A stretch of DNA of 64,000 bases from Spirochaetia bacterium (GCA_965140585.1 OZ223265.1:1-64000), one strand, 5' to 3'. Shown: positions 29,303 to 59,395, numbered from the stretch's first letter. The notes: a model not told the origin generated them from the sequence alone. Numbers and translations are program-made.

Positions 29303-29312
29303 TTACTCCATT

Positions 29313-29385
<73 letters not shown>

Positions 29386-29396
29386 AACCATTAAAA

Positions 29397-29437: not shown

Positions 29438-29520
29438 ACAGACTACCGGACAACCGGCGTCGTAACAAAATCATCTAAAGTGTCACCAAAATGACACTAT
29501 CAGAAGAATTGGAGTACACG

Positions 29521-30687
29521 ATGCTGGAAAGATTACCCTTCACTCTCTATAAAAGAACATTAAAATCAGGAAAAAAAGTTTATTACGCAAAATTCCTTCA
29601 GATGAATGGTAAATATACTGCTGGCCGGAGTACAGGAAAGGCAAATAGAAAAGCTGCAGAAATTGAAGCCTGGAAATATATCTCAACTGGTCGAATTTCA
29701 GAGAAACAAAATATTAAGTTGAAGGAATTTTCTAAAGACTTTTTCTCCTGGAATGGAGACTGGGCCTTATACAAAAGAAGTGCTGGAATGCGTCTCTCTG
29801 AAGATCATTGCAAAAGGAATCAATCTTTAACATCTTGTCATGTAGAAAATAGAATTGGAGATCTATATCTTACAGATATTGATACAGTCGTCGTAAAAAA
29901 TCTACGAAATCAACTCTACTCTGAAGGATATGCGGGGAGCACAATCAATAAGGTACTAGGCTGTTTAAAGGCAATCCTTGAATCAGCAGAAGAGAAACGT
30001 CTTCTCAGATATATGCCAAGATTTGAGAGAGCGGCTTTGAATCAGGAGGAAAGAGGCATCTTAACACAAGAAGAAGTTTCAGAACTATTTTCTTTAGAAT
30101 GGACAGATAAAAGAGTATACGCGGGTAACCTTATAAGCGCGGCAACTGGATTCAGATTATCAGAGGTGTTGGGAATAAAGAGGAACAATATAAAACCAGG
30201 ATATTTAGAAATCAAGGGCTCATGGTCCACTCGAACGCGCACATATAAATCAGGTTTAAAGAACGGCTCGAAAACAAAGGCTGTCCCAATTCCACAATCT
30301 ATTCAGACAGTTATCACAGAATTACTGGAAGAATCTCCATATAAACATCCAGATGCATATCTATTATTTTGTCCAGGATATCCCGAAAAACCAATTGAAC
30401 ATATCAAGCTAACAAAAGGTTTTGCAGAGATGCTCACAAAGTTGGATATACCTATCACTGAAGAACTTCGAAAATCTCGAAATATTAGTTTTCACAGTCA
30501 TAGGCATTTCTTTAATAGTCTTTTAGTTGAATCAAGGATACCACTTCAGAAAATACAAAAACTCACCGGACATTTAAGCCCTGAAATGACTCAGAGATAT
30601 TATCATACAGATGATCTATCAGATGTTGAAATGGTTACAGGCGAAATTTTCAATAAAGTAATAGCATTCCGACAAAAAGCTGTATAG
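29521..30687 (+). CDS. Tyrosine recombinase / phage integrase
   Basis: TGFRLSE, HSHRH, GH...YY catalytic motifs; N-terminal arm-binding-like region; GGAG before ATG 29521 (alternative start 29491). Confidence 0.93.
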   Translation: MLERLPFTLYKRTLKSGKKVYYAKFLQMNGKYTAGRSTGKANRKAAEIEAWKYISTGRISEKQNIKLKEFSKDFFSWNGDWALYKRSAGMRLSEDHCKRNQSLTSCHVENRIGDLYLTDIDTVVVKNLRNQLYSEGYAGSTINKVLGCLKAILESAEEKRLLRYMPRFERAALNQEERGILTQEEVSELFSLEWTDKRVYAGNLISAATGFRLSEVLGIKRNNIKPGYLEIKGSWSTRTRTYKSGLKNGSKTKAVPIPQSIQTVITELLEESPYKHPDAYLLFCPGYPEKPIEHIKLTKGFAEMLTKLDIPITEELRKSRNISFHSHRHFFNSLLVESRIPLQKIQKLTGHLSPEMTQRYYHTDDLSDVEMVTGEIFNKVIAFRQKAV

Positions 30688-30819: not shown

Positions 30820-31029
30820 ATGATTTCAACACCACAGAACATTTCCAAAGACGTAGCGTTAAAACGTGCAGCATTAACAGTTACAGAATTATCAGAACTC
30901 ATTGGGGTATCTAGGATTACTATCTATCGAAAGGTTGAATCTGGGGAGATACCTTCTATATCAATAGGCAGCAGACGTCTAATTCCATTCAGCTATTTCA
31001 GCCAATTTATTCTCGGAGGTACAGAATGA
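30820..31029 (+). CDS. Excisionase/AlpA-like HTH protein
   Basis: LTVxELSELIGVSRITIYR...GEIPS..IG.RRLIP pattern next to integrase. Confidence 0.8.
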   Translation: MISTPQNISKDVALKRAALTVTELSELIGVSRITIYRKVESGEIPSISIGSRRLIPFSYFSQFILGGTE

Positions 31030-31187
31030 ATCTTGGAATATCAAAACTTTCATCCTGGATTGAGGATAAAATCAAGACTGAGCAATATGGTGAGATACAG
31101 ATCACCATTAAAATTCATGATGGGAAACCTACTCTCTTAGAAAGATCATTTGTTGAGAAAATTCAATTAGATAAATTAAAATCTTAA
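31026..31187 (+). CDS. Small DUF2292/YezD-like protein (53 aa, not in ORF track)
   Basis: ATGA overlap with the xis-like gene; YGEIQITIKIHDGK motif. Confidence 0.6.
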   Translation: MNLGISKLSSWIEDKIKTEQYGEIQITIKIHDGKPTLLERSFVEKIQLDKLKS

Positions 31188-31290
31188 CATTGACCAATAT
31201 TCTATTTTTTATTTTTTAGAGTACTATCTCTTAACATAATCAGCAATCAGTCCCTGGAATCAGAACTGGGACTATAAAATTTTTCTTTTT

Positions 31291-31311
31291 GACTACTCGA
31301 AATCTCTTGTT
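31291..31311 (-). repeat. Remnant arm of an attC-like repeat
   Basis: GACTACTCGAAATCTCTTGTT differs by one base from 34256-34276. Confidence 0.55.
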
Positions 31312-31347
31312 CTTCCATAAATTTACCCTATCTATAGCATCTATAGG

Positions 31348-31683
31348 TTAATAGAAATTATTTGATGGGATTTCTTCGATAACTAATTCTTGCATGAGTT
31401 TCAACTCTGTACGATAATTTACTTGATTTTGCTCCGTTTCCTTTAAAACCGTCAAAATCTCGAATATAAAGTTCTCTTCTCCTATCTCATTCCAATCCTT
31501 CAATAGTTGTTTATTCTGATGAGTTCCCATTTTCAATTCTAATGTGTGTCTATTCCATTTTGAGGTCATATCCAGACTACTATCAATCAATATCCTGTTA
31601 TTGGTAATATTTCTTATCTGGAAAACTCCCATCTGAGATTTCCTTTTCTTATATTCTTCCTTAAGTTCTTTTTTTGTCCTCAT
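31348..31683 (-). CDS. GIY-YIG nuclease-family small protein
   Basis: GVFQIRN...NRH...HQNKQL..DW...GEENF.FEIL pattern. Confidence 0.7.
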   Translation of the reverse strand: MRTKKELKEEYKKRKSQMGVFQIRNITNNRILIDSSLDMTSKWNRHTLELKMGTHQNKQLLKDWNEIGEENFIFEILTVLKETEQNQVNYRTELKLMQELVIEEIPSNNFY

Positions 31684-31684
31684 T

Positions 31685-32359
31685 TTACTTTCCACTAATA
31701 TATTCGAGATATCTTTCTGCTGGCATTAATTCCATACGAAGTCCATCTAAAACATCTTCTGAAACATTATCTTTTTTCCCGATTGCCGCCCCAGCTTTAT
31801 TAACATAATTCAAGTAATTATCAACCATTTCCATTACATCATTTTTTTTGCTTTGCAATAGCATTCCACAATTTCGATATATTTCCAGAATAGGATTGGC
31901 AGCAGCAACCACTTTCTTTATTGTTTTGAAATTATTATCACCAGGGAATCCTGCATTTGATATGATTACTATATCAGGATTCTTGTTTGTTTTATTCTGC
32001 ATATCATAATTACCATTACCTTCAACTACAGCAAAACTCTTTAATGGTATCAATCGGTCTATAAAGTTTTTAAGACAAGCAGTCATATCCCATGTATAAA
32101 CCGGTGTGGCATAACAAACAACATCTGACTGTTTATAAGCGTCAATCAGTTCCTTCATATCATCGTTATATACACACTGGCTATATTCTGTACGCCAACA
32201 AGAAAAACATCCTTTGCAATGATTTATTTTTTTATCAATTAAAAAGTAGTTTGTTACTTCTGCACCTGAAGACTCAGCCCCCTCTTTAAATGCATTTACA
32301 ATTATATTAGTATTGCTATTTTTTCCACGAGGACTTCCGTTAAAAATTGATATTTTCAT
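31685..32359 (-). CDS. Iron-sulfur flavoprotein / NADPH-dependent FMN reductase
   Basis: NGSPRG..SNT, CxxCxxCW...C, TPVY, KNFIDR. Confidence 0.85.
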   Translation of the reverse strand: MKISIFNGSPRGKNSNTNIIVNAFKEGAESSGAEVTNYFLIDKKINHCKGCFSCWRTEYSQCVYNDDMKELIDAYKQSDVVCYATPVYTWDMTACLKNFIDRLIPLKSFAVVEGNGNYDMQNKTNKNPDIVIISNAGFPGDNNFKTIKKVVAAANPILEIYRNCGMLLQSKKNDVMEMVDNYLNYVNKAGAAIGKKDNVSEDVLDGLRMELMPAERYLEYISGK

Positions 32360-32922
32360 ATTATTATTTCCTTAATCAAATCAATATGCTTCTCGATTTC
32401 AGTTTCAGTCATTATTAAAATGGTTGATGAAGTTTTTAAGCTATCCCAAAAGTGAAGAATATGTTTTGCGACGACTTCAATATCAAAACTTTTGAACTCG
32501 CCCCTACTCTGACCATAACTAAAAATCTTTGATAATATTTTGCATGAGTTTCTAACTCTTTCATTGAAATATTCTTGATAATCTGGTTCTATGAAAGCAA
32601 ATTCATGAATTGCAAAATAAAAGCCTTTCGTTTTACTAAATACAGCCCTTTTTTCATGATTTAAATAATGTTGAAAAATATCGATTGCAGGAAAATTATT
32701 TTGTATAGCCTCATTGACCGCAGTACTATTAATCTCAATATCTCTATTTAGAATTTGAATAAAGATATCTTTCGTCGAGGAGAAATATCTATAAAGTCCA
32801 CCGCGACTTAGTTCTGTAGATTCACAAATATCTTGCATTGTTACTTTTGCATATCCTTTAATTGCGAAAAGTTCATATGCTTTCTCGAGAATATTTTCTT
32901 TGGTATTTTTCCCCTTGTTCAT
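32356..32922 (-). CDS. TetR/AcrR-family regulator
   Basis: N-terminal HTH (GGLYRYFSSTKD). Confidence 0.9.
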   Translation of the reverse strand: MNKGKNTKENILEKAYELFAIKGYAKVTMQDICESTELSRGGLYRYFSSTKDIFIQILNRDIEINSTAVNEAIQNNFPAIDIFQHYLNHEKRAVFSKTKGFYFAIHEFAFIEPDYQEYFNERVRNSCKILSKIFSYGQSRGEFKSFDIEVVAKHILHFWDSLKTSSTILIMTETEIEKHIDLIKEIII

Positions 32923-32946
32923 AGCATTCCTTTCATACACAAAAAC

Positions 32947-33005
32947 GACACTCGTGTCTTTTTATGTATGAAACTCAATTTACGACACCAGTGTCGCTTT
33001 GTCAA
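32947..33005 (-). promoter_or_regulatory. tetR promoter with two GACAC-N2-GTGTC operators
   Basis: TTGACA(33005-33000)-17-TAAATT; palindromes at 32983-32996 (inside the spacer) and 32947-32958. Confidence 0.7.
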
Positions 33006-33100
33006 GCTTTTTCCGTTATTTATGTAAGATTTCCAATTATCTATGCGTTAAATTTAAAAGAGTATTAATTGTACCTGAATGTGATATATACCCGTCTGCC

Positions 33101-33240
33101 ATTTAACGACGTTTTGAGCTGCCTGACGGCGCGTGTCTTCACGCGCATTGGCGTGATTCTGGAGTGGAGCGCGATCAGCGCGAAACGTCTCTGCCAGAAT
33201 CATGACAATAGCCAGGACTGCTCCAAAACTTTTGTTATAA
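33101..33240 (-). repeat. attC-like palindromic element (140 bp)
   Basis: TAAC...GTTA ends, paired arms with two unpaired bases, conserved inner stems shared with 34153-34280 and 35098-35245. Confidence 0.75.
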
Positions 33241-33375
33241 ATAGTTTTTCCTATATATCATACTACATTCACAATTTTACTTTAAATGAAACATACTATA
33301 TTCTTCATATAAACATACTTTTTTACTTCCACTGGGGTTATAAAAGTTATAGATTTACTGATAAGTTAAGAATTT

Positions 33376-33993
33376 CTATTTCCATCTATTTGTTAGGATA
33401 TGTTGATTAATATCTAATTCCTTCTGTGGAATTTCTTTGATCCTATCTTTTTTATATCCAATAGGAATAATCGATGCAATCTCGAATTCATTTGGAATTC
33501 CTAATATTTCTTTAACAGCTTCAGTATTTTTTGGAATAAATGTTACTCCAAATATATTTTTCTCAGCCAATGAAAGTAATAGGTTTTCTATTGCACACCA
33601 AATAGAAGCAAATCCATTAATATCATAAACTCGGATAGCATCTTTAATATCTGTTTTTGGCTTATATATTACTACAATTGATAAAGAGGCTTCCAAGATC
33701 ATTCGTTTCTGTTTTGGAATTGCATCAAAATACATCTTTTGGGCGATTGGATCATGGTCCTTAAACAATACTTTCATTTCTTCAGATATTGTTTCATACA
33801 TCTCTTCTGTTTGAGTAAGTTTAACCTTTTGCTCAAAATCATCAATTATTAAAAAATACCATTGTTTTAGATGATCGTAAGTTGGAGCAAGAAAGGCATC
33901 ATTGATTGCTTCTTTTATTACATTAATATCTAATTCTTGATCTGAAAAATCACGTATGGTTCGTCTTCTCATGATTACCTGTTTAAATTCCAT
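33376..33993 (-). CDS. Nitroreductase-family protein
   Basis: RRTIRDF, AP...QW.F, AIENLLL motifs. Confidence 0.88.
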   Translation of the reverse strand: MEFKQVIMRRRTIRDFSDQELDINVIKEAINDAFLAPTYDHLKQWYFLIIDDFEQKVKLTQTEEMYETISEEMKVLFKDHDPIAQKMYFDAIPKQKRMILEASLSIVVIYKPKTDIKDAIRVYDINGFASIWCAIENLLLSLAEKNIFGVTFIPKNTEAVKEILGIPNEFEIASIIPIGYKKDRIKEIPQKELDINQHILTNRWK

Positions 33994-34152
33994 AGTTGCG
34001 TCCTTATATACTATAAAGATTATCAAGATATTTTAGTGTTTTATTATATATTCTTTAAATCTTCGCTACCATTGGGATTCCTTATTGTAATCCCTATTTT
34101 AATGATTTCCTATTTTTTTATTGACACAATATTTTAATTTATCCGTTTCCTC

Positions 34153-34280
34153 ATTCAACTGTAAAAACCGACCGAGTCTTCGAGGCATGGCACAGTTCTG
34201 GAACGTAGTGCGAGCAGCGCGGAGTGTCTTTAGCCAGAACTGTGTCAAAGGTTTTGACTACTCCAAATCTCTTGTTATGT
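34153..34280 (-). repeat. attC-like element, one arm degenerate
   Basis: Same inner stem (CACAGTTCTGG/CCAGAACTGTG) and GTTA end; about 20 bp downstream of the lysE stop. Confidence 0.62.
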
Positions 34281-34299
34281 GCTAATTTAATTATTTTTT

Positions 34300-34920
34300 T
34301 TAATCCTCAAAAGCTAATTTACCAGCAAATCCTATTAGCAATATTCCAAAACTTTGCTCGATTCTCTTTAAAATTATAGGAGATTTCATTAATACTTTTT
34401 TAAACAGATTAGCCAGTAATCCATAAATACAGAATATAATAAATGTTAATACCATAAATATTAAACCCAAACTGATCATTTTGATCTTGGAATTTTCATC
34501 ATTTATATCAATAAATTGTGGTAAAAATGAGAAGAAAAATAATGTTAATTTGGGATTTAGAAGATTAATAAGTACTGCTTTAATAATTATATTTATATAA
34601 TTTTCCTTATCTTTATCTTGAATTTCAATAAGTTTTTTATTTCTAAGTAATCCTAAACTTATGTATAAAAGATATATTATTCCTATAATTTTTATTATTT
34701 TAAATATAATAGCTCCAGTGTTCATAACTGCGGATATGCCAAGAATTGCAGCAGTAATATGTGGTATTATTCCTAAAGTACACCCAAAAGCAGCCAAGAT
34801 TGCACGTTGTTTATTACTAGATAAACTTGTTGTTATTGTATAAATAACACCGGTTCCAGGAATAATAATAACAACTAATGAAGTAACTAAAAAACTTATA
34901 TTGAACACTATTTCCTCCAA
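34300..34920 (-). CDS. LysE/RhtB-family exporter
   Basis: PGTG, NLLNPK, FLPQF motifs. Confidence 0.9.
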   Translation of the reverse strand: MEEIVFNISFLVTSLVVIIIPGTGVIYTITTSLSSNKQRAILAAFGCTLGIIPHITAAILGISAVMNTGAIIFKIIKIIGIIYLLYISLGLLRNKKLIEIQDKDKENYINIIIKAVLINLLNPKLTLFFFSFLPQFIDINDENSKIKMISLGLIFMVLTFIIFCIYGLLANLFKKVLMKSPIILKRIEQSFGILLIGFAGKLAFED

Positions 34921-35097
34921 ATACTACGAAAGGTTATCTTAAAACTATATATCTTTCAGAAATCTCTATTAACCTTTTTATAGTTTATTTATACTATTCA
35001 AATTATTGATTCTATCCAATCCTTCTAATAATTTTTTATTTTTCGAATAATCTATTAGACATTTGTTAACCAAATTACTGAACGTTATCTTTTGTGC

Positions 35098-35245
35098 AAA
35101 TAACGACGAAATCAGTTGCGCCCTCGATCCTGAGCCGCAGGCGAAGGAATTGGCGCGGTTCTGGAGTGGAGGCATGATCAGTGCCGGAACGTCTCCGCCA
35201 GAACCGTGACAATAGATGGCGACAACTGCATTTCTCATGTTATCT
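35098..35245 (-). repeat. attC-like palindromic element (148 bp)
   Basis: AAATAAC...GTTATCT ends, AAATCAGTTGCGCC pairing with GGCG(A)CAACTG(C)ATTT. Confidence 0.75.
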
Positions 35246-35381
35246 TTCTGTATTTTATTTGATGAAGTACAGATATTTTCATTTCTCATAAGATTATCTC
35301 TACCTACTTATCTTTTACCTTTTGATATGGCAATTTCACTTATTACAGTCTGTGATCGTCATTATTTTTCCGATATATTTT

Positions 35382-35858
35382 TTACTTTTTTTGATCAATT
35401 TTCTGTGACATATATTTTTTCATGACATCTTTAGCCTTTTTCTCCGCCCATTCTTCCAGTCCTATTTTTTTTATTAAGCATAAATTATAGATCTTTGTAT
35501 TATGAGGTATAATATTTGCTTTATCAGCATAAGGCTGTAATTTATCGCATGGGAAATTATCACATTCACTACAGTTATGAATCTTTTTTTGCTCTACACA
35601 CAGATAAATAAAGCACTGTCCCTTTTTATTTAATAATAAGCATTTACCATTAGGAAAAACATTATTATGCTCGGAGAAATATCCGATTCCTTTTCGATCT
35701 CGACAACCATGGCAATCTGATTTTTCATAATCCAGACCTAATTTATTAGATATCTGCTTTTTTATCTGGTCATTAGATGTTGCCTTATATGCGCCACATT
35801 CAAAGCAGGGGATTCCACAAGGAGCTGTCATTTCTTTAAAATTCATTTGATCCTCCAT
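35382..35858 (-). CDS. Cys-rich DUF3795-like protein
   Basis: APCGxxCxxC, CxGC, CxxCxxFPC pattern. Confidence 0.7.
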   Translation of the reverse strand: MEDQMNFKEMTAPCGIPCFECGAYKATSNDQIKKQISNKLGLDYEKSDCHGCRDRKGIGYFSEHNNVFPNGKCLLLNKKGQCFIYLCVEQKKIHNCSECDNFPCDKLQPYADKANIIPHNTKIYNLCLIKKIGLEEWAEKKAKDVMKKYMSQKIDQKK

Positions 35859-35944
35859 AAACTATTCTTTCATTGATAGTTATTTGTTTTTCCCAATAGT
35901 ACATCTTGACAGGAGATTTAAAAATTGTCATATTTGACAAAATT

Positions 35945-36961
35945 ATGGCTAATTACGTCACTTTAAACAAAAAAAGAAAACGTATTATAATCTTGGCACT
36001 ACCAGGAACTCCTCTCATGTCTATCTCTTCTGCTATTGATGTATTCCAAAATGCTCCTGAAATTTTTAACAAAATCATGAATAACGAAAATCCAACCCCT
36101 TTTGACGTAGACTTAGTTTCACCATCAGGAGAATATATTCAGTGTATGGGAGGTTTTAGGCTTGAAGTAAATACTTCGATGAATGAAATCAAAAAAGCTG
36201 ATTTAGTCATAGTTACTTCATTATATTCGGAAGATGAAACAAAATTGTTTTTGCCAGAAATCCGTAAATGGTTACTTAAAATGCACCTTAGTGGTTCAAT
36301 GCTAGCCAGTTTCTGTACAGGTACATTTGTTCTAGCATCAACAGGATTATTAAACGGAAAGACTGCAACAACTCATTGGGCATCAGCAAGAAAATTATCA
36401 CAAAGGTACCCCCAAATTCATGTAAAGCCTCATAAAATGATTTGTGATGAAGGAACTATTTTTACATCAGGAGGAAGTCATGGAGCTCTTGATTTATGCC
36501 TCTATTTAGTTGAGAAGCTTTATGGAAAAGCTCTTGCTTTGAATTATGCTAAAATTTTAGTTCACGATATCTCTTTTACAGAACAATCAGCTTATGCTAT
36601 TTTCAAAGGCTTACGAGATCATAGAGATACGAAAATCTGGGAAATACAGGACTATATAGAATCTCATTATTCAGAACATTTAGGAATTTCTTATCTGGCT
36701 AATAAGGCTGCTATGTCACGCAGAACATTCGAACGTCGTTTTAAAGCTGCCACAGGAGAATCTCCAGGGGACTACATACAACAGCTGAGGATTGAAGCTG
36801 CTAAACGTATATTAGAAATGGAGTTCGATACATTTGAACAAATTACATTACGTGTGGGGTATGAAGATGCAACAACATTTAGTAAATTATTCTCTAAACG
36901 TGTTGGAGTAACCCCAACTTCTTATCGTAATAAATTCCATTCTGGACAAACTATTCCTTGA
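35945..36961 (+). CDS. GlxA/FtrA-family AraC regulator (DJ-1 domain + HTH)
   Basis: CTGTF, ATTHW, SRRTFERRF, VGYED motifs; divergent from the DUF3795 gene. Confidence 0.9.
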   Translation: MANYVTLNKKRKRIIILALPGTPLMSISSAIDVFQNAPEIFNKIMNNENPTPFDVDLVSPSGEYIQCMGGFRLEVNTSMNEIKKADLVIVTSLYSEDETKLFLPEIRKWLLKMHLSGSMLASFCTGTFVLASTGLLNGKTATTHWASARKLSQRYPQIHVKPHKMICDEGTIFTSGGSHGALDLCLYLVEKLYGKALALNYAKILVHDISFTEQSAYAIFKGLRDHRDTKIWEIQDYIESHYSEHLGISYLANKAAMSRRTFERRFKAATGESPGDYIQQLRIEAAKRILEMEFDTFEQITLRVGYEDATTFSKLFSKRVGVTPTSYRNKFHSGQTIP

Positions 36962-37367
36962 TATATTTTTTGCAATGCAATTTCGTTTTACATTTTTGTA
37001 AAGATAACATATTATATTTAATACTTTTCCATATAACTTGAAGTACACACAAGTTTTGAATATTCCATCTAACATACATAATTCACAATGTGGCTCACTT
37101 CTTAATAGACAGAAAATCATTTTCAGAAATTATTTCAATAAATATGTCGTCTCAAGCCCTTCTTTTTCTCAGTTATTATCTGTTTATTACTTTCATCCTT
37201 GTCTATAAGCTTCGAAATATTCTGCCGACTAAATATTAAAATTGCGCCTCTCTTTGTTGCGTAATTGTTCACATTATAACTTACCTCAACTGCAATCTGC
37301 GACGTTTATTCTATGGTAATATTATAGCCAGACTTTCTCCATATAATTAACAATCTACATTACAATC

Positions 37368-37422
37368 TCTCTTAACTACTATTAAATACCAGAATATCGG
37401 GTATTTAATAGTAGTTAAGAGA
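37368..37422. repeat. Perfect 23-bp inverted repeat with 9-nt loop
   Basis: TCTCTTAACTACTATTAAATACC / GGTATTTAATAGTAGTTAAGAGA. Confidence 0.9.
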
Positions 37423-37722
37423 CTCTGGATTATTATAGTTATCAAACTAACTTTTTCTTTTCCATTGACGAATATAACTATTCTATCCTGGCATATTCTT
37501 GAATAATCAGAATTTGCAGTCTATACATCAAGCGCAAAGAATCTCGTTCTTAAATACATCTGTATAGAAATGATATTAATAATAACGCCTGATAGACGGA
37601 AATAAAAGTATTTTTAAATGGTATAAATAAAGTGTTTAAATAATGCAATTTCTATCTGGATAAATGACACAAATTGAAGAGAAAATGATAGGATTGGAAA
37701 CTGATAGAGTTTCTTCCAAGAG

Positions 37723-38082
37723 TTAAGCGAGGTTTTCTCTCTCTTGCTTCTCTTCAATCTCTTTTTGAAGTCTCCCCTTACATCCTGCAATTATATCTCG
37801 AATTGAAGTCAATCCTGTTTCATCTATTATTGCAAGATCTTCGATAATGTCAGCATATCTCGGTGGTGGTGTCCATTTTGATTGTTTTTCTCCAGTAAGA
37901 AGGTATTCGATAGTCACACCTAAAGCGGAAGCAATCTTTCCAGCCTGATCGACATTAGGCATAGTATTCCTCTGAATCCAACGGCTAAATGTATCTTGTC
38001 GAACCGGAATTTTCGATGCAACCCAATCTTGAGTTGTATTTTGTCTTTTAATCTCTTCTTTTACTCGTTTCCAGAAGTCCAT
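37723..38082 (-). CDS. XRE-family HTH repressor (CI-like, no peptidase domain)
   Basis: TQDWVA...FSRW...IASALGVTIEYLLTG; divergent from early genes. Confidence 0.85.
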   Translation of the reverse strand: MDFWKRVKEEIKRQNTTQDWVASKIPVRQDTFSRWIQRNTMPNVDQAGKIASALGVTIEYLLTGEKQSKWTPPPRYADIIEDLAIIDETGLTSIRDIIAGCKGRLQKEIEEKQERENLA

Positions 38083-39350: not shown

Positions 39351-39539
39351 ATGCCGGAAGTAGAGATCACCTTAAGTGAAAAAGAAGCAGCTGAAATTCT
39401 TGATAGTTTAACTTTCATCGAATCAAAGAGTAGGCAAATGTCGCTTGCAACAAGTCAGATGGATTCAAGACTTCTGCAGATTTCCCATCATGCACAGAGG
39501 ATATCTGAGAAGCTGAAAGATAAAGGCGTTGTTGTATGA
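39351..39539 (+). CDS. Phage hypothetical protein
   Basis: AGGAGG RBS; ATGA overlap with bet. Confidence 0.7.
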   Translation: MPEVEITLSEKEAAEILDSLTFIESKSRQMSLATSQMDSRLLQISHHAQRISEKLKDKGVVV

Positions 39540-40528
39540 ACACTGAGCATGCCCTGGCTGTGATTAATGAGCAGAAGATCATCGAATACTTGGATATTAC
39601 CGGTACCGGATCAAACCTTACGGATAACGAAAAGCGGCAGTTTATCGAGGTAGCAAAGGGATGTAACCTAAACCCTTTCAAAAGAGAAATCTACTGCCTG
39701 GCATACGATACACAGGATGGCCGGAAGTTATCAATCATCACAGGGTATGAGGTGTATCTTAAACGGGCGGAGCGGACTGGGATGCTTGATGGATGGAAAG
39801 TTGAGGTTAAAGGTTCGAGGAAAGATAATACTTTCCGGGCTATTCTAACAATCTTTCGGAAGGACTGGGATAAACCATTCATCCATGAGGCATACTTTGT
39901 TGAGTATAACCAAAGAAAGGCGCTATGGAAAACCAAGCCCATCACCATGATTAAAAAGGTAGCCATAGCCCAGGGTTTTAGGATGTGCTTCCCCGACATC
40001 TTTTCAGGCATGCCCTACACCGCCGAGGAATCAGGAGAAGACTTCCGGAACATCACACCAGAGGATTCTTCAGATGATGTTATGCAGCCGAAACCTGAGT
40101 CCTTTGAACCTGTCACAGATCCAGATAGCCCAGATTACATACCAGAAGATGATTACATCTTAAAACCAGAAGATTTCCAAATCGAAGATGCAGACAATAC
40201 CCCGGATTACGAGACTCCTGAAGATAAACACCAAACAATCGGTATACCAGCTGATGAAGCCAAACAGAGTCATATTGATATGGATTTCATTCATGAGGTT
40301 GAAGCCAGGGCAGATGAGATTCGGCAGTTTGCAGAAGCTCACAGAGAGTATATCAGGCCTGATGCATATGCGGCTCTTAATGATCTTGATATAAGAGCTT
40401 TGAAACAAGATGAACCTCATTTATACCTGGACTCAGTTTCAGAGAGGTTGAGAAATACCGTGAAACTTCGAATTGAACAAAAGAAGAGTAAACAAACCGG
40501 AACCCTTGAGAATCCGGAAATCTTTTAA
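39536..40528 (+). CDS. bet: Phage recombination protein Bet (RecT-family single-strand annealing protein)
   Basis: LNPFKREIY, W...P.TMIKKVA.AQGFR..FP...SG.PY..EE motifs. Confidence 0.88.
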   Translation: MNTEHALAVINEQKIIEYLDITGTGSNLTDNEKRQFIEVAKGCNLNPFKREIYCLAYDTQDGRKLSIITGYEVYLKRAERTGMLDGWKVEVKGSRKDNTFRAILTIFRKDWDKPFIHEAYFVEYNQRKALWKTKPITMIKKVAIAQGFRMCFPDIFSGMPYTAEESGEDFRNITPEDSSDDVMQPKPESFEPVTDPDSPDYIPEDDYILKPEDFQIEDADNTPDYETPEDKHQTIGIPADEAKQSHIDMDFIHEVEARADEIRQFAEAHREYIRPDAYAALNDLDIRALKQDEPHLYLDSVSERLRNTVKLRIEQKKSKQTGTLENPEIF

Positions 40529-40549
40529 ACACATAGGAGATAGAATATT

Positions 40550-40795
40550 TTGAAAATAGGAGCCTGTTGGATAAAGAAATCCAGTACCAATAATGAAACC
40601 TACCTATCCTGCGCACTTGAGATAGTCCCAGTTGAGCTAATGCTTGGAAGCAAAAACTTTGCACTTTTCAAGAACAAGGAAAAGAAAAAAGCTGAACAGC
40701 CGGATTATATAATCTCATTCAATCCACAAAAGCCTTCAAACACCCAGTCTAATAACAACAGCTATGGCGATTTTGAGGATGATATTCCCTTCTAA
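40550..40795 (+). CDS. DUF736-like ssDNA-binding protein with SSB-type acidic tail
   Basis: IGACW..K, N..K....PDY motifs; C-terminal FEDDIPF. Confidence 0.65.
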   Translation: MKIGACWIKKSSTNNETYLSCALEIVPVELMLGSKNFALFKNKEKKKAEQPDYIISFNPQKPSNTQSNNNSYGDFEDDIPF

Positions 40796-40806
40796 GGTCG
40801 GAAACA

Positions 40807-42126
40807 ATGAAAAGTCATCTGATGCAGGTAACAGACAGCACAGCCTTTCTCAAAAACGTTCCGGATAACACTTTCACCGCCTGTGTCACTGATGGTCCTT
40901 ATGGAATATCGTTCATGAACTCAGCCTGGGATACTTTCAATCCGGAAGTCCTTAGAGAAAAGATTGAGACAAATAAAAGCACCTTCCAGGGGAAAGAAGT
41001 CAGAAGACCTGCATGTGAGGCTGGACGATACAACCGGGATTTGGAATCAAACAGGGCTTTCCAGGCATGGTGTGAATCATGGGCCTCTGAAGTTTTACGC
41101 ACAGTAAAACCCGGCGGGATTCTTCTTTCATTTTGCGGACCGCGGACATATCACCGGATGGTTGCAGGTATTGAGGATGCAGGATGGATTGTCAAAGATA
41201 CCATGATGTGGATTTATGGTTCTGGGTTTCCAAAGTCTCACAATATCGGAAACTCTGTTGATAAGCAGCTTGGATGTTCAAACCGCGGTCATGCAATAAG
41301 CAGTGGAAACAAGTACCACCCTTCAACTGGTATTGCCAGAGCCTCCGGGGATAAACTTTCAAAGTACCAGGGAAGAACACAAGAAGGTTCTATTTGGGAA
41401 GGCTACGGAACAGCGCTTAAACCTGCTTATGAACCCATAGTTCTTGCTATGAAACCTCTTGATGGAACCTATGCAAACAATGCACTTACCTGGGGAGTTT
41501 CTGGGATAAACATCGATGAAACCAGAATTGAGAATAACGACCGGGAACTCTACGGGATTTCCGGGGATGAAGGGAAAACAAAGGTTTCCTGTTACAAGGA
41601 CCGTGAGCGGGTCTCATATGTTCCTAATGAGCTTGGCCGCTGGCCATCAAACATCCTCCTTGAGCAATATTCCAGAGGTTACCTTGATGCTCAGGCTGAT
41701 GAGAATATAAGCCGGTTTTTCTATTGTTCAAAATCAAGCAAAGCAGAACGGGAAGCAGGCCTATCTGATTTCGAATCCTTCCAGGTAAATGACGGCCGGA
41801 AATCAGAGATTGATAATGCCTACCAGCGCGGAGAGACCAGAAGAAAGAATATCCACCCTACAGTGAAACCTCTATCAGTTATGAGGTACCTGGTGAAGCT
41901 TGTTAAGATGCCTAAAGACAACCACATCCTTGATTTATTCATGGGTTCAGGGACTACCGGCTGTGCATGCGCACTTGAAGGGATAGAAGAGTTTACCGGG
42001 CTTGATAAAACCCCTGATTACCTTCCAATTGCAGAGGCACGAATCAAACACTGGGAAAAGGTTTCAGTTCGGGGGAAAGATTTTGACGAGCTGCAGGGGG
42101 ATTTATTCAATGCTGTTTGCTCATAA
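40807..42126 (+). CDS. Phage DNA methyltransferase (N4/N6, beta class)
   Basis: TDGPY (DPPY variant), YGSGFPKS, HPTVKP, DLFMGSGTTG. Confidence 0.88.
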   Translation: MKSHLMQVTDSTAFLKNVPDNTFTACVTDGPYGISFMNSAWDTFNPEVLREKIETNKSTFQGKEVRRPACEAGRYNRDLESNRAFQAWCESWASEVLRTVKPGGILLSFCGPRTYHRMVAGIEDAGWIVKDTMMWIYGSGFPKSHNIGNSVDKQLGCSNRGHAISSGNKYHPSTGIARASGDKLSKYQGRTQEGSIWEGYGTALKPAYEPIVLAMKPLDGTYANNALTWGVSGINIDETRIENNDRELYGISGDEGKTKVSCYKDRERVSYVPNELGRWPSNILLEQYSRGYLDAQADENISRFFYCSKSSKAEREAGLSDFESFQVNDGRKSEIDNAYQRGETRRKNIHPTVKPLSVMRYLVKLVKMPKDNHILDLFMGSGTTGCACALEGIEEFTGLDKTPDYLPIAEARIKHWEKVSVRGKDFDELQGDLFNAVCS

Positions 42127-42138
42127 GGTTGTAATCTG

Positions 42139-42606
42139 ATGGAAAAACTGAAACTAAAAGTCCTTCCTGCAAGCTCTAAAGACCCGCTTACAATCTCTTT
42201 CACCATCGAAAGAGAGGACCTGTATCTAACCAAGGCCTTTTATAAACAATACATCACTCCATGTCTTGATCATTATCTCACCATTGAAGTTAAGAAATGG
42301 TACCGGGAAAGAAGCCTCAATCAGAACAAGCTCTGGCACAAGATGCTCCGGGAACTTTCGGCCGGGCTTCAAACAGATATGGAGCTTATAAAGCAGGGAA
42401 TAAAGGAAGTGGCTGCAGATGAATACGGCTACCCTTCAGCGGTTAACCCGTTTAATAAAAACCGAACACCAAAGCCAAGCAGCCAGGCGACTGTTAAAGA
42501 AATGGGAATACTCATTGAAACAACCTTCATCGAGGGAGGCCAGTCTGGAGTTGATTTATCTGAATACGCGAATGATTACAGGAAGCTTAAGAATGACAGA
42601 GCGTGA
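42139..42606 (+). CDS. NinB/Orf-like recombination protein
   Basis: RSLNQNKLWH and PSS.ATVKEM..LIE motifs. Confidence 0.6.
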   Translation: MEKLKLKVLPASSKDPLTISFTIEREDLYLTKAFYKQYITPCLDHYLTIEVKKWYRERSLNQNKLWHKMLRELSAGLQTDMELIKQGIKEVAADEYGYPSAVNPFNKNRTPKPSSQATVKEMGILIETTFIEGGQSGVDLSEYANDYRKLKNDRA

Positions 42607-42883
42607 ATCATTTAAGCTGCAGGAGCTTAAACAGAAGAAGTTTTTCATCCAGGGCGGTCAGTGCGCGGTCTGCGGGAAAATGCTTCTGGATGGTACTCCC
42701 CAGCTTGCTCACAGAATCCCTCAGTCAGAAATGTTTCTACAGAAATACGGGGAAGCGGTTATTCATCATGAGAAAAACCTGGTACTTGTGTGCAGTGGGA
42801 AGTGTAATGATTCAGTACTTATTCAGAATAACCCGGTGGAAATACAAAGGCTCATCGATGAGATAGAAGGAGAGATTTTATGA
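42593..42883 (+). CDS. HNH-like zinc-finger protein
   Basis: CAVC...AHRIP...NLVLVC...CN; start at ATG 42593. Confidence 0.6.
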   Translation: MTERESFKLQELKQKKFFIQGGQCAVCGKMLLDGTPQLAHRIPQSEMFLQKYGEAVIHHEKNLVLVCSGKCNDSVLIQNNPVEIQRLIDEIEGEIL

Positions 42884-43704
42884 ATGGACAGATGAAAAAT
42901 ATCCCAATGGAACAGGTCCGGTTTATTGGAAACATTCGTGATGCAGATATCGAGATTGATGAGCTGGCTTCATCGATTAAGTACCAGGGATTATTACAGC
43001 CGGTTGTTGTGAGTCAAACCGGAGAGGGATACAACCTCATTGCCGGACACAGACGATTTAGAGCCTGTACCCTTCTTGGATGGACTGAGATCCCCGCGGT
43101 AATCAGAGACTTTGAGAATAACCGGGCTGTACAGCTTACAGAGAACATCCAGCGCAAGGAAATGACCAAACTTGAGGAAAGTACTGCAGTCTATAACCTT
43201 ATGAAAGATATAAAAGTCAATAAATCAAGGCTTGGGAAAATCCTGGGACGAAATCCAAACTGGATTGATAAGCGCTTAAGCTTCTACGAGGTTCGGGAGT
43301 TTCTTCTGGGCGCTGGAATCCTTCCGCTGAAGCTCATTGATACTATGAGTTTTGATATCGCAAAAATCGTGAGCAAGTATAACAGAAAATACTGGTTGCA
43401 GTTATGCTCAAACCTTCTTGGTAAACGCTGGCTCCCTGAACAGATCCGTGCTTACTGTGAGAGTGTTACAAATCCTAATTACAAACCCGCTCAGAACAAG
43501 AAGCCTGGGAATAAATCTGAGAAACGTACTCCGGAGCCCGGTTCTGATAACAAGATAATCCTTGATCTTCTAAACAGTGAAGAGGATGAGTTTTCAATAG
43601 TCCTTGATAAGAAAGATCTTGTAATAAAGCTTATGTTCCCAACTGATAAAGGCTTCAAGACCGTTAGTAACATCCTTCAGAAAGTCGGTGGGGAAATACT
43701 TTGA
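42880..43704 (+). CDS. ParB/RepB/Spo0J-family protein
   Basis: GLLQPVVV, IAGHRR, ENIQR motifs. Confidence 0.88.
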   Translation: MNGQMKNIPMEQVRFIGNIRDADIEIDELASSIKYQGLLQPVVVSQTGEGYNLIAGHRRFRACTLLGWTEIPAVIRDFENNRAVQLTENIQRKEMTKLEESTAVYNLMKDIKVNKSRLGKILGRNPNWIDKRLSFYEVREFLLGAGILPLKLIDTMSFDIAKIVSKYNRKYWLQLCSNLLGKRWLPEQIRAYCESVTNPNYKPAQNKKPGNKSEKRTPEPGSDNKIILDLLNSEEDEFSIVLDKKDLVIKLMFPTDKGFKTVSNILQKVGGEIL

Positions 43705-43734
43705 AAAGCATCTATTAAACAAAAGGTTAATACT

Positions 43735-44787
43735 ATGGCAGATAAGAAATACTACTGGTTGAAACTTCAAAAGAACTTTTTCAAGCGGCATGATGTAAAA
43801 ATAATCAAGGCAATGGATAACGGATTACAGCATGTTCATAACTACCTGCAGTTGATGCTTGAAAGCATTGATCATGAAGGCACCCTTCGATTCAGTGATG
43901 AAATACCCTATACCGTTTCAATGCTTGCCGCGGTCATCGATGAGGATAAGGACACCTTAGAAAAGACTTTTGAAATTCTCAAGTCTTTCAGGCTGCTTGA
44001 AATCTGGGATGACGGGACCATCTTTCTTACAAAGATTCCGGAAATGCTTGGTTGCGAAAGTGAAGCTGCAGAAAGAGTCCGGAAGTACCGGGAGAAGAAA
44101 CAATCTGAATCTGATGATTCCTCAGAGGATGACCAGGGAGAAAGTTCTATGGATGAACCTGATAACTACCCAGAAAATCCATGTAACGAGGATGTAACAG
44201 ACCCCGCGTTACATTGTAACAACGCTGTAACATCATGTAACGCGCATGAAACGCCGTGTAACGGAGGTGAAACAAGCTGTAACGCTGATGTAACACAGAG
44301 TAAGAGTAAGAGTAAGAGAGAGATAAAGAGTAAGAGTATTAATATGGCGCCAGAGGCTGAGCCTCCCGCGCTTTTTGGTCCGGATGAGATTGAATCTCAG
44401 GAGGAGGCTCCCCCTTCCGGGGAAGAACCTCTGGGGAATATGCTTAGCTTTCCTGACCCTGATACTCTGCTTTATAACCGCGTGAAAGATCTCTTTGAAC
44501 AAAAGCAGCCTCAAGGTAAGTTCACCAACTACGGCAAGGAAGGCGCTGCAATCAAGCAGCTCATCGCGAAATCAAGAGCCAGATCCCCAGATGATGATTT
44601 TCTAATCGGCATGATTCAGATGTTTGATAGACTTCGGGAACAGGAGGGCTTCTACAGGAAACAACCGTTTTTACCTTCGGCGCTCAATTCCTCCGGAATT
44701 TGGGATCGGGTACTCAATGCGGCACAGTTAATCTGGGTAGAGGGACAAACTCTCAAGGACATGGAGGAAGAGGAGATACTATTTTGA
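43735..44787 (+). CDS. Phage replisome organizer / replication initiator
   Basis: YYWLKL..NFF N-terminal domain, AERVRKYR, internal iterons. Confidence 0.85.
   Translation: MADKKYYWLKLQKNFFKRHDVKIIKAMDNGLQHVHNYLQLMLESIDHEGTLRFSDEIPYTVSMLAAVIDEDKDTLEKTFEILKSFRLLEIWDDGTIFLTKIPEMLGCESEAAERVRKYREKKQSESDDSSEDDQGESSMDEPDNYPENPCNEDVTDPALHCNNAVTSCNAHETPCNGGETSCNADVTQSKSKSKREIKSKSINMAPEAEPPALFGPDEIESQEEAPPSGEEPLGNMLSFPDPDTLLYNRVKDLFEQKQPQGKFTNYGKEGAAIKQLIAKSRARSPDDDFLIGMIQMFDRLREQEGFYRKQPFLPSALNSSGIWDRVLNAAQLIWVEGQTLKDMEEEEILF
44182..44338 (+). repeat. Probable replication origin: TG(T/A)AAC iterons plus AGAGTA repeats
   Basis: Ten direct copies at 10-11 bp spacing inside the initiator gene. Confidence 0.75.
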
Positions 44788-45209
44788 CTGTTGAAAAGTT
44801 TATATCAAAGATTCAGGGATCATACGGGACCTACTCTGCAGGTCAGCTGACTGTTGTAAAACAGTACCTTGAAAAACAGAAACCGGCACTTATTGAGTAT
44901 TTATATGCTGAAGTCTTAAAAACTGTCTCCTGGCAATACAAGACCCCACCAGGGCCCAAAGAGTTTGAACAGGCTATGAAGAATGTGAAAGTCCGGCCGG
45001 AACTCAGGATTGAGTTACAGCCTGCCCCTGTACTGAAACTTGATGAACCAGAAGTCCCTGCAGAGGAGGCAAAGAAGTTCTTTGATGAGCTTAAGAGAGT
45101 CACCAGTAAAAAGAAGCCTGAAGGGAGGGTCATTGACTATGCAGAGCGAAAAGCTCAGCTGCAAAGACAAGCTGTTACCCTGCAGGATAAAGCGGCATCG
45201 ATGCGATGA
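44784..45209 (+). CDS. Phage hypothetical protein (helicase-loader position)
   Basis: TTGA overlap with the initiator stop; function not recognisable. Confidence 0.6.
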   Translation: MTVEKFISKIQGSYGTYSAGQLTVVKQYLEKQKPALIEYLYAEVLKTVSWQYKTPPGPKEFEQAMKNVKVRPELRIELQPAPVLKLDEPEVPAEEAKKFFDELKRVTSKKKPEGRVIDYAERKAQLQRQAVTLQDKAASMR

Positions 45210-45225
45210 GCTTGGAGATTGTATC

Positions 45226-45483
45226 ATGAAATTCTTAAAAGAGTTCTTAATCAATCTGGGTGCCCTACTGGCTGCACTGGTTCTGCTTTTCTTTCCGGAA
45301 ATCATTGCAGCAATTGCGTGTAGCTTTTTCGGTGTTTCGGAGAATGCTGGTTGGTGGATTGTTCTTATCGGGTTGATTCTTCAGATTGCGGGTGGCATCA
45401 CCCTTGTACATTTCCTGTTTCCTGAAGGAATGGTTATCTCTGAATCGAAAACTGTCATAACTGAAATCAAGGGAGGTAGATAA
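45226..45483 (+). CDS. Small two-TM membrane protein
   Basis: GGAG RBS, two hydrophobic segments. Confidence 0.6.
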   Translation: MKFLKEFLINLGALLAALVLLFFPEIIAAIACSFFGVSENAGWWIVLIGLILQIAGGITLVHFLFPEGMVISESKTVITEIKGGR

Positions 45484-45487
45484 CATC

Positions 45488-45628
45488 ATGATTCACTGGG
45501 CCTGGCTTTTACTGATATTCCCTGCATCTTTTTTGAGTTTCATTATGGGGGTGATTATCGCTCACGGTATGCAAATTGAAGTGATTCTCGCTCCTGCAGG
45601 AAAAGAAACCGTGGAGGATAGAACATGA
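45488..45628 (+). CDS. 46-aa single-TM protein (not in ORF track)
   Basis: GGAGG RBS; MIHWAWLLLIFPASF...; ATGA overlap with the next gene. Confidence 0.55.
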   Translation: MIHWAWLLLIFPASFLSFIMGVIIAHGMQIEVILAPAGKETVEDRT

Positions 45629-46011
45629 AAAAGGTGAAACAGTCTGTATGGACATTTCGAAAATCCTATTGCCGGAAACTGCTTAACCAGATATTCCGGA
45701 AAGACAATATCTGTCCAGACTGTGCTGGGCACGGTATCTCACTTGCATTCTGTGATTACGTTGATGAATCGAAAAATGGGCTTGAGATCCTTAAGTGTAG
45801 AAGATGCGCGGGCAAAGGTCATATCTCTTTCGTCATGAAAGACTGGATTGAAAAAGGTCTGCAGCTTCGAACGCTCATGCTTGAGAACCACTGGTCATTT
45901 AAGGATGTGTCGAAGCTTACCGGTTTCGGGGTAGTTGCTGTATCTGATGCGAAACATGGATATTCAGACCCCACTCCTGTACTTGAAGCACTCCCCGGAG
46001 GTTTCAAATGA
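45625..46011 (+). CDS. Zinc-finger (CxxCxGxG x2) protein with HTH-like C-terminus
   Basis: CPDCAGHG and CRRCAGKG motifs. Confidence 0.6.
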   Translation: MKKVKQSVWTFRKSYCRKLLNQIFRKDNICPDCAGHGISLAFCDYVDESKNGLEILKCRRCAGKGHISFVMKDWIEKGLQLRTLMLENHWSFKDVSKLTGFGVVAVSDAKHGYSDPTPVLEALPGGFK

Positions 46012-46039
46012 AACCACTTTCACAAGGATTGTTACAGAT

Positions 46040-46435
46040 ATGAGTAAATCTATTACAAAAACACCGGAAAAAGTTACAGATTCCCCGGATCATATAACAA
46101 AAGTCCTGGCAATTCTCACAAAGGTTGATTCCCAGAGATTGAAACCTGAAGCAGCTGTAGAAGAGATTGAGGAGGTATTTGCAGAACTCTATGCACCGGT
46201 AGTCACCCCGGTTATAAACACCTTGATTGAAGGATTCAGGACGCTTGTTCAGATGTATCCGGAACTCATAGACGGTTCATCACCTGAAAGTCAGCTGAAG
46301 CACTGCGGCACATGTGATAATTGGGCGGGTGCTGTTTACCAATGTATGTCTGAGATTGATGAGGAGGTAGGATACTTCGATTGTGCATGTATGGGTAAGC
46401 ACTGGGTACCAGAGACATCCGGGGAAAGGATATAA
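46040..46435 (+). CDS. Phage hypothetical protein with Cys-rich C-terminus
   Basis: CxxC...C...C cluster; AAGGA RBS. Confidence 0.55.
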   Translation: MSKSITKTPEKVTDSPDHITKVLAILTKVDSQRLKPEAAVEEIEEVFAELYAPVVTPVINTLIEGFRTLVQMYPELIDGSSPESQLKHCGTCDNWAGAVYQCMSEIDEEVGYFDCACMGKHWVPETSGERI

Positions 46436-46436
46436 G

Positions 46437-49585: not shown

Positions 49586-49595
49586 TATAAAATCC

Positions 49596-59351: not shown

Positions 59352-59395
59352 GACTGAAAATCCTCGTGTCAAGGGTTCGATTCCCCTCGGCGGCA
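59352..59395 (+). repeat. attR core (displaced 3' part of tRNA-Phe)
   Basis: Identical to 29342-29385. Confidence 0.95.

Follow-up and report, generated by a model that had tools for sequence, protein, structure and literature searches.

A partly decayed integron cassette array as probable cargo of a phage-derived island at tRNA-Phe in a Spirochaetia genome

Within a stretch of 64,000 nucleotides from the genome of a Spirochaetia bacterium (GCA_965140585.1 OZ223265.1:1-64000; the whole of this stretch is referred to as the window), positions 31,291 to 35,858 hold a series of GC-rich palindromes alternating with minus-strand genes. This region is probably a CALIN (cluster of attC sites lacking an integron integrase), namely a four-cassette, partly decayed fragment of a Spirochaetia-type cassette array that travels as cargo in a phage-derived island. 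On sequence grounds the palindromes are attC sites, both by their family identity with arrays linked to an integron integrase (IntI) and by their architecture. In the definition given in PMC7923331, a CALIN consists of at least two attC sites close together with no intI nearby; here three model-positive sites and a remnant of a fourth lie within 4 kb, and there is no IntI in the 64 kb. A preliminary description of this DNA had already spoken of attC-like sites and of a CALIN, and that reading holds up, since the family forms arrays beside bona fide intI genes in two Spirochaetia genomes and carries the structural hallmarks of attC.

The palindromes at 33101-33240 (E1), 34153-34280 (E2) and 35098-35245 (E3) are co-oriented copies of one GC-rich hairpin family of about 140 nt, the arms of which align in a repeat finder. 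Their positions are those reported in the preliminary description, as is that of a remnant at 31291-31311, whose match begins at 31287, and the three covarying stems that it quoted are present as written. The sites have a GC content of 47-55% in surrounding DNA of 29%, in agreement with the earlier impression of GC-rich sites in AT-rich DNA. For the motif TTCTGGN{20,45}CCAGAA the window has three occurrences where 0.24 would be expected, and none of 100 shuffles reaches three. A covariance model (CM R1), derived from an alignment (A3) of 81 array sites with no window sequence among its rows and run over the whole window with filters off, recovers E1 at 161.3 bits (E=3.5e-38), E3 at 119.5 bits (E=1e-27) and E2 at 81.6 bits (E=3.2e-18); nothing else in the 64 kb scores above 13.7 bits (E >=0.31), and the window therefore has exactly three model-positive sites, the same three that had been picked out as palindromes. 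By blastn, E1 has a close relative in an attC of an array on contig OY776510.1 (97.8% identity over 139 nt), E2 in a site of CAXXYH010000003.1 (94.0% over 117 nt), and E3 again in an attC of OY776510.1 (90.8% over 142 nt).

These two contigs, from two Spirochaetia metagenome-assembled genomes (MAGs), provide the link between the repeat family and IntI. A genome scan with a degenerate pattern covering E1, E2 and E3 returned 37 loci on 7 contigs (Table 1), and an nhmmer profile made from the 81 sites gave 116 hits in the fetched DNA of these contigs, 115 of them co-oriented within their contig; the remaining hit, of 20 bits, overlaps a stronger hit on the opposite strand. The OY776510.1 array comprises at least 52 sites on a single strand between 4,417,879 and 4,524,345, about 106 kb, and the CAXXYH010000003.1 array at least 39 sites, also on a single strand, between 51,593 and 126,786, about 75 kb; both counts cover the fetched DNA, with stretches of 16.4 kb (OY776510.1) and 4.4 kb (CAXXYH010000003.1) lying outside them. 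Each array ends 1-1.4 kb from a divergent intI gene, the products of which score 392.5 and 382.5 bits with the integron integrase model TIGR02249 (cut-off 265) and are 58% identical to one another. An intI gene divergent from a long co-oriented array is how a sedentary chromosomal integron is canonically laid out. The sites are spaced at a median of 1360 bp (104 intervals), and the longest open reading frame (ORF) between neighbouring sites is opposite in strand to the model in 71 of the intervals and shares its strand in 23; the other 10 have no such ORF. Linkage to an integron integrase is a property of the two MAG arrays and not of the window itself.

The architecture of the family is that of an attC site. 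For alignment A3, RNAalifold predicts 35 base pairs, 21 of them with compensatory changes. When these were recounted with four R-box pairs added, 96.8% of cells proved to be paired, as against 31-43% (maximum 42.9%) in controls with the partners shifted 1-3 columns; changes on both sides occur in 22 of the 39 pairs, and the observed covariation score is reached in none of 500 shuffles. Read on the + strand, a 5' AAC is present in 80 of the 81 sites and a 3' GTT in all of them. The consensus further includes a 6-bp L box, a side hairpin, a long central stem and an unpaired spacer of 3 and 4 nt, which is shorter than the usual 5-6, and there are two extrahelical bases on the 3' arm, opposite the AAC, at columns 137 and 144 and six pairs apart (window positions 33217 and 33224 in E1). 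The + strand folds more stably than its complement in 80 of the 81 sites (mean -32.4 versus -26.5 kcal/mol), and the same is true of E1, E2 and E3. PMC5027507, in its account of the attC bottom strand, lists AAC in R', extrahelical bases opposite to it, a 6-bp spacing from first to last and a lower folding energy. Inverse core ends, a paired hairpin with a spacer, extrahelical bases and greater stability of the bottom strand are accordingly all found in the family, and among E1-E3 the hairpin is incomplete in E2 alone, where the L' box is missing. There is also one co-oriented site for each cassette 3' end: all four window sites come just downstream of minus-strand gene units, as the preliminary description had said.

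The four window sites differ in their state of preservation. E1 and E3 match CM R1 from end to end, and as single strands they fold at -35.9 and -36.1 kcal/mol, each with a z of -5.5 and with none of 200 shuffles as good. Their profile scores of 141.7 and 108.0 bits can be set beside the quartiles of 91 array sites (110.6, 122.2 and 141.6), by which E1 is typical and E3 falls just under the first quartile. E2 retains a perfect R' (ATTCAAC) and R'' and has lost about 11 nt of its 5' arm together with the L' box: its nhmmer match spans profile positions 30-148 only, its CM alignment contains 13 non-standard pairs, nearly all in the outer helix, and the gap is visible in a global alignment with the closest family member. 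Its fold is not beyond that of shuffles (z -1.3, 27 of 200 as good). The TAAC...GTTA ends attributed earlier to all of the sites are therefore shared by E1 and E3 and not by E2, which starts with CAAC on a 5' arm some 11 nt short. At the left edge of the array, positions 31287-31311 equal the end of E2 at 24 of 25 bases (repeat finder), and a profile built without window sequences extends the match to 31261-31313, profile positions 101-144, with E=0.01 (nhmmer); an unanchored local alignment of 31200-31286 is not significant, as scores equally high turn up in 15 of the 200 shuffles and in 12 of the 100 control windows. Only the L''/R'' end survives in this remnant, and the part bearing the cleavage point is gone. 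Two of four sites are defective in the window as compared with 2 of 91 in the two MAG arrays (Fisher p=0.008), an excess that fits erosion in the absence of an integrase. From the position of the AAC, the predicted points of IntI cleavage would be A33106|C33107 in E1 and A35103|C35104 in E3.

The genes between the sites are arranged as cassettes. Reading along the minus strand, the cassettes would follow in the order DUF3795, LysE, nitroreductase, and a last one with three genes, TetR, FMN reductase and a GIY-YIG-like ORF. In the window, the cassette ORFs start 159-177 nt from the upstream site (median 160 in 63 array cassettes), and 19-136 nt separate the stop codon from the site of the same cassette (median 84 in the same 63); both distances are within the ranges of the MAG arrays. 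Composition agrees as well: with the sites removed, GC content is 29% in the window array and 25-33% in the MAG arrays, and the host flanks are at about 39-45% in both. Pfam bears out the names that had been given to the DUF3795, LysE, nitroreductase, TetR and FMN_red genes; the GIY-YIG label of ORF115 is the weakest assignment, since this ORF has no Pfam match and the label comes from an NCBIfam score below cut-off and from PHROGs. One cassette gene has a relative in the long arrays. The nitroreductase gene has a counterpart at the distal end of the array in CAXXYH010000003.1, with 83% identity at the nucleotide level (621 nt) and 82% at the amino acid level, the homology ending at the ORF ends; its start is placed at ATG 33993 by homology with this MAG copy, the mechanical ORF call giving TTG 34026. 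In a blastn comparison of the window with the loci, matches fall in only four intervals, E1, E2, E3 and the nitroreductase ORF. A single good promoter match lies upstream of the TetR gene, at 33005-32977 on the minus strand.

Table 1. Features of the window and of related contigs; positions given without an accession or locus number are those of the window.
Feature	Position or accession	Strand	Evidence or remark
tRNA-Phe (GAA), integration target of the island	29312..29386	+	ARAGORN; Rfam tRNA 68.2 bits
Left copy of 44-bp exact direct repeat (attL core)	29342..29385	+	Exact repeat with 59352-59395
Phage-type tyrosine integrase	29491..30687	+	Pfam Phage_integrase 66.7 bits; phrog_1 147 bits; TIGR02249 30.3 bits (cut-off 265)
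Excisionase-like HTH_17 protein	30820..31029	+	PF12728; TIGR01764 45.4 bits
Small DUF2292-like ORF, last gene before the array	31026..31187	+	PF10055 21.4 bits, just below cut-off 22
attC remnant, left edge of the array; truncated attC of the TetR/FMN-reductase/ORF115 cassette	31261..31311	-
ORF115, GIY-YIG homing-endonuclease-like, last of the three-gene cassette	31348..31695	-	TIGR01453 33.3 bits (cut-off 56.05); phrog_7168 43.9 bits
NAD(P)H-dependent FMN reductase/flavodoxin-like	31685..32359	-	PF03358 65.8 bits
TetR-family regulator	32356..32940	-	PF00440, PF17922
attC E1, intact, nitroreductase cassette	33101..33240	-	ATTTAAC...GTTATAA
Nitroreductase gene	33376..33993	-	PF00881
attC E2, defective, LysE cassette	34153..34280	-	ATTCAAC...GTTATGT
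LysE-family exporter gene	34300..34920	-	PF01810 125 bits
attC E3, intact, DUF3795 cassette	35098..35245	-	AAATAAC...GTTATCT
DUF3795 gene, first in the array	35382..35858	-	PF12675 53.4 bits
AraC/DJ-1 (FtrA-like) regulator, divergent from the DUF3795 gene	35906..36961	+	PF12833, PF01965; NF006902 211.8 bits, below cut-off
CI/RstR-like repressor, beginning of the phage early region	37723..38082	-	PF07022; NF041951; phrog_8, phrog_3
Right copy of 44-bp direct repeat (attR core), right end of the island	59352..59395	+
Contigs with long arrays	OY776510.1, CAXXYH010000003.1		Two Spirochaetia MAGs
Second cluster in the CAXXYH010000003.1 MAG	CAXXYH010000004.1
Third Spirochaetia MAG, two places	OY759746.1
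Candidatus Thalassospirochaeta sargassi	JAQQAL010000022.1
Short contigs binned as Mycoplasmatota	JAEIOE010000093.1 (L017), JAEIOE010000098.1 (L037)		4.4 and 3.2 kb
Island-interrupted attC	L006:12440-12640 with L012:9940-10090		CAXXYH010000003.1
Island-interrupted attC	L036:19400-19600 with L031:9940-10090		OY776510.1 (middle of the island outside fetched DNA)

The carrier of the array is an element of about 30 kb bounded by a 44-bp repeat that corresponds to the last 44 nt (29342-29385) of the tRNA-Phe gene, its 3' half. Between the two copies the gene order is integrase, HTH_17 gene, DUF2292-like ORF, array, AraC/DJ-1 regulator and repressor, after which come early genes for RecT, NinB, a ParB-like nuclease, a replisome organiser and two DNA methylases; the array thus occupies an accessory slot between xis and the immunity repressor, well inside the repeat pair. 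The right part of the island (48500-59350), about 11 kb at 31% GC, holds signalling genes instead of phage structural genes, among them two response regulators, a GGDEF-EAL protein, a GAF histidine kinase and an HD-GYP protein with a Cache sensor, together with genes for a hemerythrin, a CBS protein, a NUDIX protein and an HNH endonuclease; no attC was found in this part. Among 30 ORFs compared with PHROGs, none falls in a head, tail or lysis family, and in that comparison the HNH endonuclease (54654-55061) is the sole hint of a packaging function. The preliminary description had placed the array inside a prophage. What stands is its position inside a 30-kb tRNA-Phe element with att repeats, an integrase, Xis, a CI-like repressor and an early module of RecT, NinB, replisome organiser and methylases; the structural and lysis genes of a prophage are lacking among the matches, and we therefore call the carrier a phage-derived island or prophage remnant, not demonstrably a complete prophage. 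Its composition is patchy: GC content is 36-39% at the integrase gene and 29-31% over the array, then stands at 43% between 39.5 and 48.2 kb and at 31% between 48.5 and 59.35 kb. The phage module at 39500-47400 has only 1-2% coverage in a phage collection, at the RecT/Bet gene, and no known relative there.

The AraC/DJ-1 regulator may be part of the cargo, because it lies in the same low-GC block in the GC profile. We note that a perfect palindrome with 23-bp arms and TTAAC/GTTAA ends is present at 37368-37422, between this gene and the repressor. A 9-mer of this palindrome, TCTCTTAAC, recurs at 31227-31235, so that two copies bracket the low-GC cargo from 31.2 to 37.4 kb; the 9-mer has three matches against 0.65 expected, and 3 of 100 shuffles reach three. 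As a candidate short attC the palindrome was rejected, its score being 7.8 bits (E=9.1) and both spacer and bulges being absent from it. The integrase at 29491-30687 was likewise ruled out as an integron integrase, by a TIGR02249 score of 30.3 bits against the cut-off of 265.

Several results weigh against the interpretation of the region as integron-derived cargo. No IntI was found in the 64 kb, as the preliminary description had maintained, the only tyrosine recombinase being that at 29491-30687, which is also where the best tblastn match to the two MAG IntI proteins falls (E=5e-4). There is likewise no recognisable attI in the 64 kb, attI being a site that is not recognisable by sequence, and Rfam at gathering thresholds reports tRNA only and no family for the palindromes. 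By tblastn of 33 window proteins against the 37 loci, the nitroreductase and, weakly, the phage-type integrase are alone in finding a match, so that six of the seven proteins of the array region have none in the fetched arrays; and the flanks of the nitroreductase gene differ from those of the MAG copy, for which reason no donor array is identified. Promoter-like sites are not enriched in a consensus scan (36 against 28.1 +/- 5.6 expected), and expression of the cassettes is consequently unproven. The family itself departs from textbook attC in some respects: the strict cores RYYYAAC and GTTRRRY are present in only 29 and 20 of the 81 sites, site length (133-148 nt, median 139) is at or above the published range of 57-141 bp, and where T and G are usual at the extrahelical positions, this family has A (80 of 81) and C (81 of 81). 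This last departure suggests, from the alignment, a lineage-specific fit between IntI and attC. As to history, we infer entry of the cassettes as a block, over their stepwise loading, from the junctions alone, and an IntI acting in trans on the array is a plausible assumption. Two quite different accounts of the region may be considered. One would see in the palindromes repetitive extragenic palindromic (REP) or miniature inverted-repeat transposable element (MITE) sequences, or plain transcription terminators, with no connection to integrons. GC-rich hairpins after genes in AT-rich DNA, the ordinary fold of E2 and the silence of Rfam are what it would predict, but repeats of that sort would hardly be co-oriented in all but one of 116 hits, placed at gene ends, and gathered into two long arrays that end at intI, nor is there a reason for them to keep an unpaired spacer, ends of AAC and GTT, and extrahelical bases confined to a single arm. 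The REP/MITE-like scatter regardless of gene ends that the preliminary description had set as a test of its own reading is not observed. The sites are not followed by a run of T, and a terminator scan of 31000-36100 yields one site, inside the DUF3795 ORF; no further copies are scattered through the 64 kb, and a search with E1 in distant mode finds none in phage or plasmid collections. This account is already contradicted and we regard it as exceedingly improbable. The other would accept the cassettes and deny that a mobile element carries them, taking the region for a chromosomal CALIN beside an int-xis remnant, or for several islands accreted in tandem. The patchy composition and the want of structural phage genes would be natural consequences, but the array sits between xis and a CI-like repressor and inside a single pair of 44-bp repeats, of which no third copy occurs in the window even at three mismatches, and this makes the proposal very unlikely.

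Granting that the cassettes are cargo, the question is how they came to be in the island, and here the junctions are informative. No intI, attI and cassette promoter (Pc) of a complete integron accompany the array; what lies upstream of its first cassette is the AraC/DJ-1 regulator, and no attC or attI is recognisable upstream of the DUF3795 gene, where the CM reaches at most 7.8 bits (35858-37723). At the other end, the left junction lies at the end of an attC opposite the AA|C cleavage point, which argues that IntI did not make it, and since it lies inside an attC, at least one event not due to IntI has shaped the array. Acquisition of the cassettes through an IntI acting in trans, as first proposed, therefore loses ground: with the left break inside an attC, E2 deprived of its L' box and the right end bare, entry as a block is at least as likely. 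Stepwise loading in place is the form in which that proposal could survive. Under it, IntI of the host would have put the first cassette at a secondary GTT-type site and later ones at the resident attC, the truncations being later damage. IntI does act on secondary sites, if at low frequency. Such a history would sit well with the intact state of E1 and E3 and their different subtypes, with the junctions of E3 with LysE and of E1 with TetR, which are canonical full sites followed by the next cassette, and with the IntI linkage of the attC family in relatives; it must nevertheless invoke an extra deletion for a left junction that keeps only the L''/R'' end, the right end shows no identified trace of the expected G|TT junction, no IntI is present in the 31 kb to the left or the 28 kb to the right, and half of the sites are defective. 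We consider stepwise loading, the chief competitor of block entry, a possible but rather unlikely course of events. Block entry by illegitimate recombination or imprecise excision, followed by erosion, calls for the fewest events, and within the overall interpretation we give it about an even chance. Capture of a block is made credible by the prophages of Vibrio anguillarum, which, as PMC9892861 describes them, carry a subset of the host chromosomal integron with attC of the host's type, and also by the islands with integrase and HTH_17 genes that interrupt both Spirochaetia arrays inside attC (see below).

The sequence of events that we favour would begin with cassettes made by IntI in a chromosomal integron. 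The sites fold as single-stranded hairpins on the window + (bottom) strand, and IntI would cut between A and C of the 5' AAC. The cassettes most likely entered the island as a block through recombination not mediated by IntI, or were trimmed by such an event afterwards, and would then have decayed. At present only E1 and E3 look usable. An IntI of the host, acting in trans, could insert new cassettes at either of them, and recombination of E3 with E1 would excise LysE and nitroreductase as a fused unit of 1,997 nt (33107-35103), with the DUF3795 gene and the TetR unit presumably fixed in place. As there is no integron Pc upstream, the cassette genes must use promoters of their own. The cargo may give a lysogen redox or detoxification and export functions, in the manner of phage morons.

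The related contigs furnish a number of further observations. In the CAXXYH010000003.1 array, four adjacent attC at 98298-102130 (L019/L033) carry an extra 45 nt or so inserted in the side hairpin, which brings them to about 190 nt, and are otherwise complete; four array sites that at first appeared truncated are in fact complete, with a longer side arm. A genuinely degenerate R'/L' arm is present in the attC just upstream of the nitroreductase homologue (L018:6438-6584, CAXXYH010000003.1 51593-51739), in which AAC has become TAC and the arm is A/T-mutated; both its subtype and its lesion differ from those of E2. The second cluster of the same MAG, on CAXXYH010000004.1 (L035:5396-16741), consists of four attC beside an Xer-like recombinase (XerA-type model 232 bits versus 220) and a Shedu-like SduA_C gene, with several toxin-antitoxin pairs downstream. 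The recombinases at L035:5396-6469 (194 bits) and L011:11325-12011 (129 bits) were considered as IntI candidates and set aside, as they are below the TIGR02249 cut-off of 265. The two short contigs binned as Mycoplasmatota consist of cassettes with the spirochaetal attC family, and either a binning error or a transfer is possible.

In each of the long arrays, moreover, an integrative island splits an attC; the two islands, about 23 and 29 kb in length, are homologous. Both have an HTH_17 gene and an integrase 28-30% identical to that of the window, and one of them also has an AEP-TOTE primase-helicase and a type I restriction-modification system. At the left junction only R', the spacer and 5-6 nt of L' are kept, and at the right the attC is complete; the islands are flanked by the repeat TAACGACGATTT(G), of 12-14 nt, which covers the R'/L' arm. 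No tRNA gene that might serve as an island target was found in 11 loci, and the array-interrupting islands look like attC-targeting islands. Since they interrupt the arrays, islands and cassettes sit side by side in this lineage. A literature search for attC-integrating islands gave none among the matches listed, which does not establish their absence from print. A more speculative idea, and one that we hold to be doubtful, is that the integrase/excisionase islands of this lineage and its integrons are mechanistically coupled: relatives of such islands would integrate straight into attC of the large arrays, and the window island would be the outward leg of this exchange, a ferry carrying cassettes between cells, still to be loaded and unloaded by a host IntI at E1 and E3. 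Were this coupling real, the recognition code between IntI and attC would be specific to the lineage, with the invariant A and C at the extrahelical positions as its mark.

On the interpretation of the window array as decayed cargo, it represents a case in which integron cassettes have left a chromosomal array aboard a phage-derived element that integrates at a tRNA gene, in the free-living Spirochaetia, a lineage whose integrons are little studied. It would support the published idea that phage-like elements are a route by which cassettes spread, and it illustrates the probable fate of such cargo without its integrase, in which attC erode and cassettes fuse or become fixed; the picture of integron function is not changed. 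CALINs in phages have already been published, and the possibly new details concern the family more than the window: the invariance of the extrahelical A and C, the presence in free-living Spirochaetia of arrays exceeding 100 kb, and the integration of islands into attC may be such details.

Fused cassettes arise when the attC between two cassettes is damaged, and the LysE and nitroreductase cassettes, separated by an attC without an L' box, are predicted from its structure to be a pair of this kind, movable only together between E3 and E1. Chromosomal integrons of Treponema were reportedly the subject of work by Wu et al. in 2013. A Spirochaetes-specific attC model is presented in Ghaly et al. 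2021 (PMC8352920). By its description there, this type of attC is, like that of the window and like the Treponema integrons, a taxon-specific and sequence-conserved family, whereas the present relatives come from MAGs of uncultured Spirochaetia and from Candidatus Thalassospirochaeta, with intI divergent from the cassettes. Among phages, the account of Qi et al. 2023 (PMC9892861) gives three complete integrons, one In0 element and 17 CALINs from 10,705 phage genomes, and has IntI1 recombining some phage attC sites. The window array resembles these CALINs, described there from temperate and virulent phages, in being an attC cluster without intI in a phage-type carrier. It differs from them, as that account portrays them, in that its carrier is an island at tRNA-Phe without structural genes, in its spirochaetal attC of about 140 nt, in having two of four sites defective, and in that the element is not integrated at an attC and has captured no intI. 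The long and highly conserved attC of large chromosomal integrons, of which the 133-bp VCR2 of Vibrio cholerae is an example, have, in the description of PMC5027507, G/T/T as extrahelical bases, and a spacer of 5-6 nt is usual, unlike the two bases A and C and the spacer of 3 and 4 nt seen here; they share with the present family the long sites, a branched or large variable terminal structure, high identity within arrays and a bottom strand that folds better than the top.

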